Positions 5,857 through 43,347 are shown, numbered from the whole stretch's first letter. The stretch: 61,607 nucleotides of DNA, filler included, from Fonticula-like sp. SCN 57-25 (GCA_001724245.1; 7 parts of 7 records of this genome joined end to end with filler, not necessarily neighbours in it); one strand, 5' to 3'. Notes: a model not told the origin generated them from the letters alone. Numbers and translations are program-made.

Positions 5857-5964
5857 ATTGGAAAGGCCAACGCGCGTAACGGTTAGGCATGATGATTGGT
5901 CAGCCTCTTGCAAAGTTTCGTGTGCTGATTGGTCAAATGCACACAAGCCCTCTTTGCTGATTGG
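5857..5964 (+). promoter_or_regulatory. Four tandem inverted CCAAT (NF-Y/HAP) boxes upstream of the kinase
   Basis: ATTGG at 5857, 5895, 5928 and 5960; three are in a TGATTGGTC context. Confidence 0.65.
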
Positions 5965-6052
5965 TCGAACCTCTACCTATGTGGTGGGGTTCCAGTGAGA
6001 TTTTTCTGGGGCAAGCCCGCCCCTCGTACCGTTATTTTTCGGATCTAGAGAG

Positions 6053-29651: not shown

Positions 29652-30170
29652 AAAGAAAAAAGAGCGGCGATTTGTACACATTGACTGATAATACAGCACG
29701 AAAAAAAGACGTTCTTTGTTTCCGGCAGCATTGCAGCTGTTATTTAGCAGCATTGTTCAATAAGAGACTTACTGGTTATAATAGAACGACAATGTCGGCG
29801 AGCGCGTCTCTAATCATTGTGAGCAGGTTGATTTCCATGGTCTGTTGATGTATTTCCAGGGCTCTTTTAGGCACGAAAGCTGCGTTTTCTTGGCCAAGCA
29901 GCACCTACCTAGCCCATTCAACTCAACAATATTCAACGCACGTATAGTGAAACTTGGACATCCCATAGCATATATGTCGCCTTTCGAACTTTATGCCGCC
30001 GTGGCAAAGCTCCGGTTTTGATCCAATCCTCCGATTCCACCCCCGATTTCACCCCAGAATCGGCTGGAATGTTCGAGCGCTTTCTGATTGGCTGAATCGT
30101 GATTGGACGACCTCAAGAAGGTCAGCCGACCGTCTTTTGCGTTATCAGTAGTCTTCTGACCACCTGCGAC

Positions 30171-39906: not shown

Positions 39907-40940
39907 GGGGGCGATGCGGCACTTTTCGAGGACGGTGACCATGGCGTGCGTCATCATCATGCCGGGGACGGTGTGGCGGAAGCCCGAGAAGCTAAACTTG
40001 GCCGAGAGCGAGTCATACCAGGGGATCTGGTGGGGCGAGTGCACGTCCTTGTGCAGGTCGTGGTACGTGACAATCTCAAAGCCGGCCTTCTTGAGGGCGT
40101 CGATGACGTCGTGCGTCGAGGCGATGTCGGGGAGCCCGTTGCCGACCTCGATGCCAAACTTGAGCTCGCGGTGGTACGGGTTCTGCGGCTCGTACTTGTC
40201 GGTCATGCACCACTCAAAGCCCGCAAAGAGCGCGCCGGGCTTGAGGCAGCGGAGGATCTCGGAGAAGACGCCGACCTTGTCGGGCGCATGGCAGGTGGCC
40301 TCGATCGTAAAGGCCGCGTCGTACGAGCTGTCCTTGATCGGCAGCGACATAAAGTCCGCCTTGACAAAGTCGCACAGCTTGTCCAGACCGCCCTGCACGT
40401 TCTGCTTGTTGCCGCGCTTGATCTGGTAGTCGTTGTTGTTCACGCCAGTGATGTTGGCCCCGGAGAAGCGCGCGATCTGGCGCATCGGGCCGCCAATGCC
40501 GCACCCGATATCAAGGCACTTCATGCCGGGCGCGAGCTTGAGCTGCGAGGCGAGAAAGTGCTCGCTGCGCGCAAGCGACTCATTGAACGACTCGTCCTTG
40601 TAACGCGGCGCAAAGTGGAACGACTGGCCCCAGCCGTACTCGTAAAAGTCCGTCACAAGATCATAAAAGTTGTTCACCATCAACATATAGTTCTCCTATC
40701 AAGCGCAGAGAGAAAGGAACAAGAGAGCGCGTCAGTACACTGCCTCAAGTGCTGCCAGCGGGGCACGGGCCGGTGTGCATGGCACAAGCCGCCCCGGGCA
40801 TTTTTTCGTACCTTGCGCTCTTCGTGGTTATCCGTCTCGCGGAAGAGCGTAGCATACTGCTCGTACTCCTTATCCACCTGGCCCGACTTGGCCTTGGCGT
40901 CCTCGGTCTGACCGATCTGAAACACGGAAGGGGTCGACAT
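39907..40940 (-). CDS. ERG6: Sterol C24-methyltransferase, 3'-truncated
   Basis: FYDLVTDFYEYGWGQSFHF, LDIGCGIGGP, IEATCHAP, LKPG, IEVGNGLP. Confidence 0.95.
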
Positions 40941-41364: not shown

Positions 41365-43347
41365 ATGGTGCGTGTGGCGGCGGGATCGTTTGACGGCGGG
41401 CAGCGCGCTTATACTTGCTGTGTTTCTTTAATGTGTAGGCCACCTTTTTGCTGTTCGAGTCCGCCTCGGGCTATGCGCTCCTTGAGCGCCTCGAGAGCGA
41501 GGAGATTGGCCAGGAATTGGCTGAGGTGCAGGCCGCCATGCGCGACCTCGGCAAGTTTGGCAAGATCGTCAAGCTCAAGTCCTTTGTGCCGTTCAAGTCG
41601 GCCGCTCACGCTCTTGAGAACATTAACGATATCACTGAGGGTATCGTCAATGACCACCTGAAGACCTTCCTTGAGGCCAACATGCCCGCCGCCAAGCCGG
41701 GCAAGAAGTCCAAGGCCCAGCTCGCCGTGGCCGATGCCAAGCTCGGCGGTGCCATCCAGGACGGCGTCGGCATCTCGTGCGTTTCCACCGAGGTGACTGA
41801 CGAGCTCCTCCGTGGCGTGCGTCTCCACTTTTCCAAGCTCGTCAAGCAGTTCAAGGGTGCGTTCTTTTTCAGCCTTTTTTCAACTCTTTTCATCGGTTGC
41901 TTACCCGCCGGCCTTGTCCAGATGGCGATGTTGAGCGCGCCCAGCTTGGTCTCGGCCACGCGTACTCGCGCGCCAAGGTCAAGTTCAACGTGAACCGTGT
42001 CGACAACATGATTATCCAGGCGATTGCCCTTCTCGATCAGATGGACAAGGATCTGAACACGTTCTCGATGCGCGTTCGCGAGTGGTACTCGTGGCACTTT
42101 CCCGAGCTTGTGAAGCTCGTGACGGACCACCACCAGTATGCCCGCCTCATCGTCCTGATCCAGAACAAGACCGACCTCACTGCCGAGGATGTCCCCGCGA
42201 TCGAGGAGGTTGTCGGCGACGAGACCAAGGCCAAGCAGATCCTCGATGCCGCCCGCAGCTCGATGGGTACCGACATTTCCGAGATTGACCTCGCCAACAT
42301 CACGCTGTTTGCCGAGCGCGTCGTTGCGCTCTCCGAGTACCGCAAGAACCTCTTCTCGTACCTCTCGTCCAAAATGCACAGCGTCGCCCCCAACCTCTCC
42401 GCCCTCATCGGCGAGGTCGTCGGCGCCCGCCTCATCGCCCACGCCGGCTCGCTCACCAATCTCTCAAAGTACCCGGCCTCGACCGTCCAGATTCTCGGTG
42501 CCGAGAAGGCTCTCTTCCGGTGCGTTGCTCGTTGAAGTTTTAGTGTGGAAGCGTGGTGGTGATATTGTTGTTGAGTGTCATTGATGATGTTGATTGAAAG
42601 TCATTGATGATGATGATGATGATGATGATGATGTGTATGTGTATGTGTATGTGTATGGCTGTTATTGTTATCATTCTTGCACTTTTTCATACACTTTTAC
42701 TTACATTTCTCCTCTTTTTAGTGCGCTCAAGACGCGCGGCAACACGCCCAAGTACGGTCTCATTTTCCACTCGTCGTTCATTGGCCGCGCCGGGCAAAAG
42801 AACAAGGGCCGCATCTCGCGGTACCTCGCCAACAAGTGCTCAATCGCCGCGCGCATTGACTGCTTCACGGAGATCCCGACCTCAAAGTTTGGCGACGCGC
42901 TCCGCGGCCAGGTCGAGGACCGCCTCGTTTTCTATGAGACGGGCAAGGCGCCCGCCCGCAACGTGGACGTAATGAAGGGTGTCATCAGCTCCCTCGATTC
43001 GGGTACGCTTTGGGCGCAGTGATTGGCTGGAAAGTGGCGGGAAAGGGCACGAAATGTGTGGAAAGAAAGTATGATGTTAATTTTCCCTTTTTGCGAGACA
43101 TTTTCCATGGTCGCAAAAAATTTCTCATTTGAATATTTCTGATTCTTTCTCTTTCCACTTTGTGATGGCCCATTTTTTGACTTTTTTTGCTGTATTTCTT
43201 GAACTTATGGCCACGTGCTAACTTTTGCTGCTCGCAGATCGCGTCAAGACGCCAAAAAAGTCAAAGAAGCGCGCCACGGAGGAGGAGGAGGAGGAGCCTG
43301 AGCCGACGCCAAGCAAGAAGAAGAAGTCGAAGAAGTCGGCTGAGTAA
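41365..43347 (+). CDS. NOP56: Nucleolar protein 56 (box C/D snoRNP core)
   Basis: [69 protein letters not shown]-rich tail; intron directly after the ATG. Confidence 0.95.
43061..43149 (+). ncRNA. Intronic box C/D snoRNA candidate (LSU rRNA 2'-O-methylation guide)
   Basis: In NOP56 intron 43003-43237: C-like box ATGATGT 43071, D box CTGA 43139-43142, terminal stem GAAAGAA/TTCTTTC, guide TTCTCATTTGAATATTT complementary to LSU rRNA AAAUAUUCAAAUGAGAA (recalled). Confidence 0.78.

Follow-up and report, generated by a model that had tools for sequence, protein, structure and literature searches.

A predicted, uncatalogued box C/D guide snoRNA in the last NOP56 intron of an unsampled eukaryote at or beside the base of the fungi

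Human NOP56 hosts SNORD56, SNORD57 and SNORD110 in addition to SNORD86. The latter, a box C/D small nucleolar RNA (snoRNA) within a NOP56 intron, is an orphan that acts in cis via alternative splicing and decay (PMC11028025; this and the other sources are cited from the portions of text and tables available to us). A second group of described systems consists of the U24/snR24 relatives (SNORD24, SNORD76, Arabidopsis U24, Dictyostelium CD19 and Neurospora CD50 and CD51), box C/D guides that act on one stretch of the large-subunit (LSU) ribosomal RNA (rRNA); of the two Neurospora relatives CD51 is intronic and CD50 intergenic (PMC2780460). Here we describe an element in the last intron of NOP56 of Fonticula-like sp. 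SCN 57-25 (GCA_001724245.1) that carries a 17-nucleotide (nt) complement to that same LSU stretch. It was found in a window of 61,607 nt (the whole stretch of DNA analysed, in which 7 parts of 7 records are joined end to end with filler). We consider it likely that the intron encodes a methylation-guide snoRNA of the box C/D class, which is released after splicing and directs fibrillarin to the equivalent of A1456 of yeast 25S rRNA.

At the level of primary structure the element shows all the hallmarks of a box C/D guide snoRNA, and its predicted anatomy is that of a single-guide, intron-encoded RNA with the following parts:

43058..43158, + strand: predicted box C/D snoRNA with its whole extended terminal stem (minimum-free-energy fold; weak Rfam C/D matches)
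43071..43077, + strand: box C, AUGAUGU (6 of 7 positions fit RUGAUGA; the last is U, not A)
43122..43138, + strand: D-guide antisense element, 17 nt, abutting box D (perfect LSU complement)
43139..43142, + strand: box D, CUGA (sequence match)
43061-43067 / 43143-43149, + strand: inner stem GAAAGAA/TTCTTTC (sequence complementarity)
43058-43065 / 43151-43158, + strand: outer stem GTGGAAAG/CTTTCCAC, 8 perfect base pairs (sequence complementarity)
43088-43096 / 43111-43119, + strand: internal hairpin of 9 base pairs, TTTTTGCGA/TCGCAAAAA, between box C and the guide (complementarity and fold)
43045-43048 / 43168-43171, + strand: flanking pairing GGGC/GCCC (sequence complementarity)

The inner and outer stem registers use the same 5' strand, and the minimum-free-energy fold merges both into 12 pairs with a 2-nt bulge, in which 43058-43069 are paired with 43145-43147 and 43150-43158. 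The boxes span 72 nt from C to D, and the mature RNA is probably shorter than 43058-43158, roughly 43065-43149. From the 5' splice site to the start of the stem there are 55 nt, and from its end to the 3' splice site 79 nt; the former value falls within the 5' distance of 41-60 nt of intronic snoRNAs in Neurospora (PMC2780460). The branch A (43221) lies 79 nt past the D box and 63 nt past the outer stem. Re-indexing of the window placed all boxes, stems, the hairpin, the branch site and the intron limits listed in the initial annotation at their coordinates on the + strand.

The host gene is NOP56 and not NOP58, since its 198-residue exon scores 289 bits against human Nop56 and 271.5 bits against yeast Nop56, above the best Nop58 score of 211.6 bits. 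A comparison with a protein atlas yielded clusters of the Nop domain only, with no taxonomy that could be used. These scores and the analysis of the reading frame bear out the initial annotation, which had placed the snoRNA in the last intron of NOP56, ahead of the exon for a lysine- and glutamate-rich (K/E-rich) tail. NOP56 is itself a ribosome-biogenesis gene, which further supports a snoRNA at this position. The start codon lies in a further upstream exon; the parts of the gene that were resolved are:

41439..41856, + strand: NOP56 exon, N-terminal domain (open frame ATFLLFES...KQFK, GTGCGT donor at 41857)
41922..42519, + strand: NOP56 exon, Nop domain (bit scores against human and yeast Nop56)
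42722..43002, + strand: NOP56 exon directly 5' of the snoRNA intron (translation ends ...SSLDS)
43003..43237, + strand: last NOP56 intron, 235 nt (GTACGC donor, GCTAAC branch motif, CAG acceptor)
43217..43222, + strand: branch-site motif GCTAAC, starting 75 nt after the end of the D box
43238..43347, + strand: last NOP56 exon, K/E-rich tail and TAA stop (translation, 36 residues)

Excision of 43003-43237 restores the frame into the 36-residue K/E-rich tail, and the unspliced frame meets a stop after 6 codons; by its predicted splicing 43003-43237 is the last NOP56 intron. Its G+C content is 41%, against 55-62% in the exons. The contigs of more distant relatives run from 42517/42519 straight on to about 42720/42742, and the borders of the preceding intron are therefore confirmed at the DNA level. 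This middle intron (42520-42721, 202 nt, 36% G+C) consists mostly of microsatellite, first (TGA)n and then (TGTGTA)n; it is absent from the contigs of the more distant relatives (runs X2 and X12), and its start is kept in a closer relative (run X4).

The guide was compared with a reference set of at least 40 eukaryotic LSU fragments (about 50 kb in total) that are present as contamination in assemblies of prokaryotes. In each of the 40 LSU fragments listed, the exact reverse complement of 43122-43138 occurs once. When the LSU piece of another contig (L001) was aligned by Infernal to the Rfam model LSU_rRNA_eukarya, the same 17 letters appeared in the consensus, 13 of them printed as highly conserved. 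The duplex of guide and target has a predicted energy of -18.5 kcal/mol with 16 predicted pairs, the terminal U-A being left open by the program. In the Rfam consensus structure the target segment comprises a single-stranded junction and the 5' strand and loop of a conserved 6-base-pair hairpin, and the A that would be methylated is the last unpaired base before this hairpin with its 7-nt loop (position ~1469 of the Rfam LSU model). The fifth base upstream of box D is 43134, so the D+5 rule selects the same A that the initial annotation had named. That annotation had described the target as fungal 25S rRNA; the exact LSU match stands, and since the organism falls outside the sampled fungi (see below) the segment is better read as the eukaryotic LSU consensus. 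As an aside, among contigs classed as viral, L001 and L002 contain parts of eukaryotic LSU rRNA, and more than 40 prokaryote assemblies contain short eukaryotic LSU ribosomal DNA contigs, in both cases presumably by contamination or mis-binning.

The length of the complement sets it apart from the background of the window. The longest LSU complement anchored to a CTGA in the window is the one of 17 nt; in 300 block shuffles a length of 17 nt or more was never reached, 16 nt was reached in 1 and 15 nt in 8. Shorter anchored complements are at chance level: 5 of 11-13 nt were observed against a mean of 4.36, and 93 of the 300 shuffles reached at least 13 nt (exactly 13 nt in 71). Even when up to 3 mismatches are tolerated, the window has a single occurrence of guide plus D box, against 0.00 expected (100 shuffles). 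At 2 sites in the window a C box is accompanied by a D box at a distance of 45-140 nt and by a flanking stem of 8 or more base pairs (mean of 0.14 and maximum of 2 in 100 shuffles), and the NOP56-intron element is the sole site that joins these features to an LSU complement.

Several observations weigh against a guide snoRNA at this position. The guide was matched to the LSU rRNA of other eukaryotes, and 4 of the 17 target positions are variable among eukaryotes according to the Rfam consensus. Box C deviates from the consensus at its last position, and by eye no recognisable UGAUGA or CUGA that could serve as C' or D' box is present between C and D; highly divergent C'/D' motifs do occur (PMC3116282). 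The fold energy of 43040-43175 is ordinary (z = -1.30; 18 of 200 shuffles were as stable or more). The guide was found in none of 80 metagenomic NOP56 loci, all of them at most 80% identical, and the 20-nt pattern of guide plus D box had no match in the genome contigs searched. The imperfect box C, the failure to recognise a C'/D' pair, the modest z, the failure to find an orthologue in the same 80 loci and contigs and the lack of an Rfam family at threshold would all fit a non-working element, that is, a decaying snoRNA pseudogene or chance motifs in an A+T-rich intron. We consider this unlikely: the anchored complement of 17 nt (0 of 300 shuffles), the C box and the stem of at least 8 base pairs (mean 0.14) are jointly far beyond chance, all motifs are intact, and the changes displayed in a diverged relative lie outside the C box, the guide and the D box.

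The relative in question is represented by a diverged contig (run X4, record 18) that spans 43009-43193 with 9 substitutions and 2 indels. The displayed changes are substitutions at 43050, 43051, 43053 and 43160 and, as indels, an insertion that follows 43158 and a deletion of 1 nt at 43148. No displayed change falls in 43061-43147, which leaves the C box, guide and D box clear, and the deletion shortens the U-run of the 3' stem arm in a way that should still allow pairing. Five of the 9 substitutions are undisplayed and might fall in the core, another point on the negative side, and the contig is therefore only weak support. The element was also found with 0 differences in two further metagenome runs, X2 (which shares its study with the probable source sample) and X5, an identity that shows presence and not selective constraint. 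The runs in which the stretch occurs are metagenomes, and among the 21 listed for it none is of RNA. Contigs from run X12 and several from other organisms cover the exons only and not the intron.

The 80 NOP56 loci were collected by an orthologue scan of metagenomes with the exon adjoining the intron; they are 69-80% identical and many are transcript-like. Among them, only 3 weak and unrelated C/D-like matches with LSU 10-mers were found. One distant locus (L061) has at 1291-1357 a compact C/D-like element of 67 nt (ATGATGT...CTGA), about 1.2 kb upstream of the matched exon and with a 10-nt LSU complement before box D, which might be another NOP56-hosted snoRNA. No named protein is more than 78% identical to the NOP56 of our organism; early-diverging fungi rank first, and the values for Fonticula and green algae are 74% and about 75%. 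As far as these protein comparisons can tell, the organism belongs to an unsampled eukaryotic lineage close to the base of the fungi or beside them. A neighbouring gene (39907-40695, - strand), whose 3' part runs into a stretch of N, encodes a sterol 24-C-methyltransferase of the plant/protist 'cycloartenol' type. Among named sequences a Nuclearia transcript comes closest to it (64% identity); one relative reaches 83%, the other unnamed ones at most 67%, and no named fungal protein occurs among its best 120 matches.

The position of the target can be expressed in yeast numbering by way of the U24 sites, which are C1437, A1449 and G1450 in yeast, C1447, A1459 and G1460 in Arabidopsis and Cm1673, Am1685 and Gm1686 in Dictyostelium (PMC8053127, PMC8817022). 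The LSU segment allows a single placement with a C 12 nt before an AG, and the 17-mer would therefore start at yeast position 1452, with the predicted target at the equivalent of A1456. This agrees with the yeast position given in the initial annotation and is consistent with the spacing of C1437, A1449 and G1450 on the LSU segment, that is, with numbering derived from published site spacing. The equivalent site in human LSU rRNA is not known to be modified. In the parts of the tables available, the Arabidopsis equivalent A1466 is not listed (the run reads A1459, G1460, C1479) and neither is the Dictyostelium equivalent 1692 (Am1685, Gm1686, Am1689, Gm2132) (PMC8053127, PMC8817022); the Neurospora equivalent 1437 does not appear in the available site table either (PMC2780460). 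The expectation that the site is not known as modified thus holds for the tables of yeast, Arabidopsis, Dictyostelium and Neurospora as far as these were available; human lists entered the comparison in part, and fission yeast, Candida, trypanosomatids, Euglena and the supplementary fungal snoRNAome targets lay outside it.

A literature search for A1456 or Am1456 gave no relevant paper among the matches listed. The main text of PMC5824354, which uses alignment coordinates and has its target tables in the supplement, mentions neither U24 nor NOP56 nor 1456; the main text of PMC8351944 contains none of the site terms, that of PMC5027482 does not contain '2357', and PMC12309372 has NOP56 only in its reference list. 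Lineage-specific sites are commonplace, with 21 of the 49 Dictyostelium sites being specific to Dictyostelium (PMC8817022, available text), and a new site would therefore be no surprise to a specialist.

A search of the whole window against Rfam gave no match at the gathering threshold. The best matches below it were snoR69Y (RF01198; 21.3 bits, E 0.18) and snR79 (RF01184; 19.9 bits, E 0.6), far under the gathering scores of 45 and 55, and the matched columns consist of the boxes and A/U-rich spacers. These weak, generic C/D matches span 43064-43150 and 43067-43144. Since there was no match at gathering level, the element belongs in the box C/D class without a curated family. Neither weak match shares the predicted target: snoR69Y guides C2949 of Arabidopsis 25S rRNA, a different site from the A1456 equivalent, and snR79 we take to guide a site in 18S rRNA. 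The Rfam/Infernal check proposed with the initial annotation thus leaves the element uncovered by any known family, and we regard it as a credible box C/D snoRNA that has not been catalogued before and whose predicted methylation site would be new.

As a guide snoRNA, the element would be transcribed within the NOP56 pre-mRNA, and its long terminal stem would bring boxes C and D together in a kink-turn to which Snu13, Nop58, Nop56 and fibrillarin would bind. Splicing and debranching, followed by exonuclease trimming, would yield a protected particle of about 80-100 nt. The 17 nt upstream of box D would then pair with the near-universal LSU segment, and fibrillarin would 2'-O-methylate the rRNA A opposite 43134 by the D+5 rule. 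The motifs, the stem, the complementarity of the guide and the position in the NOP56 intron are present in the DNA itself; expression, assembly of the small nucleolar ribonucleoprotein (snoRNP), processing and methylation are predictions made from them.

A further stretch of the element, just after box C and rich in U and C, could pair with the LSU rRNA close to the main target:

43081..43093, + strand: possible accessory LSU pairing (13 base pairs including 3 G-U, 10 nt 3' of the main target, one LSU variant)

With this variant, which occurs in 17 of the 35 full-context fragments among those listed, the pairing involves LSU positions +27 to +39, counted from where the 17-mer begins, and has an energy of -16.2 kcal/mol, as good as in 2.3-2.7% of shuffles. 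The layout resembles the 'extra base-pairing' of yeast and human snoRNAs (available text of PMC3116282). It could suggest a real snoRNP with another main role, either as a folding chaperone by bipartite pairing of 43122-43138 and 43081-43093 or on another target, the candidates being small-subunit rRNA, small nuclear RNA or transfer RNA. We think this a most improbable main role. According to the same available text, extra pairing stimulates methylation rather than replacing it (PMC3116282). The accessory match is at chance level in 11 of 14 LSU contexts (23-67% of shuffles) and borderline in one (5.7%), it overlaps the internal hairpin, and the 17-nt duplex ending at box D has the canonical geometry of methylation. 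Another match, of 43102-43114 to the LSU about 216 nt 5' of the target (13 base pairs, 3 G-U), was rejected, as it has no adjoining box and is comparable to spurious runs in the same scan; these nucleotides form the loop and 3' arm of the hairpin, and their complement is conserved in 8 of the 8 long LSU fragments tested.

Its location within the gene of its own binding protein is a feature that the element has in common with SNORD86 (PMC11028025). It could accordingly be imagined that snoRNP proteins assemble on the NOP56 pre-mRNA and alter how the last intron is spliced, whether or not the RNA is also an rRNA guide, such that the abundance of Nop56 feeds back on the full-length, tail-bearing protein. 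A GTATGA that overlaps box C (43069-43074) looks like a 5' splice site, and a retained intron would end the protein 6 codons in, with loss of the K/E tail only. The three donors of the gene (GTGCGT, GTGCGT and GTACGC) are unlike GTATGA, and this being the last intron, its retention leaves no downstream exon junction; junction-dependent decay needs an exon junction downstream of the stop. SNORD86, moreover, is an orphan and barely detectable as a mature snoRNA in the available account (PMC11028025), whereas the 17-nt rRNA guide of the NOP56-intron element is perfect and speaks for guiding in trans. We judge such a sensor in cis very unlikely. The suggestion in the initial annotation of a feedback element placed before the K/E-tail exon found no support, the perfect guide being unlike the orphan SNORD86 and retention costing only the tail.

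A more far-reaching idea would give the element a dual role in a deep-branching relative of the fungi, in which a lineage-specific methylation of the A1456 equivalent, aided by the second pairing, goes together with tuning of last-intron splicing of the K/E-tailed Nop56. The presence of a snoRNA in NOP56 would then be either independent of that in vertebrates or a very old inheritance. We offer this combination as speculation with a slight chance of being right.

Other C/D-like or guide-like candidates were rejected. One of them, at 5889-5960, is made up of three CTGATTGGTC repeats (inverted CCAAT boxes); the three tandem CTGATTGGTC(A/G)A copies at 5889-5965 are promoter-like and mimicked a box C/D snoRNA in the motif scan. 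Two anchored 13-mers, at 30092 and 30637, do not exceed chance and lie in a promoter and at an exon edge. Two ATTGG motifs at about 30085-30105, directly upstream of an apparent coding start, are likewise promoter-like inverted CCAAT boxes. The 18-nt pattern of guide plus D box had 9 matches in viral contigs, and because none of the 9 has a C box within 110 nt upstream these were taken as chance.

The guide snoRNA proposed here, if real, would enlarge the catalogue by one guide and by one predicted site of ribose methylation, located at the base of a conserved LSU hairpin and in a stretch with neighbouring positions that are methylated in other lineages (the U24 sites, Am1689 and C1479). A snoRNA in NOP56 outside the vertebrates is a mild curiosity.

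In relation to the U24 group, the described sites C1437, A1449 and G1450 sit 3-15 nt 5' of the duplex predicted here (available parts of PMC8053127 and PMC8817022). The NOP56-intron guide pairs with the yeast-equivalent positions 1452-1468 only, so that the U24 sites are not covered, and the predicted site is 7 nt 3' of A1449; the U24 families show no similarity to the element by Rfam. Dictyostelium CD33 (26S Am1689) and Arabidopsis SnoR147 (25S C1479) are lineage-specific guides whose sites, in the available parts of their descriptions, lie in or next to the 17-nt segment. Judged by spacing from the shared U24 sites, Am1689 would correspond to about yeast A1453 and C1479 to about yeast C1469. 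Compared by site and not by snoRNA sequence, these two differ from the predicted A, lying 3 nt 5' and 13 nt 3' of it. With human SNORD86 the element shares its class and its host gene. It differs from it by its place in the last intron, by the absence of sequence similarity in Rfam and by the nature of its predicted action, SNORD86 being an orphan that works in cis (available text of PMC11028025) and the NOP56-intron element having a canonical rRNA guide.

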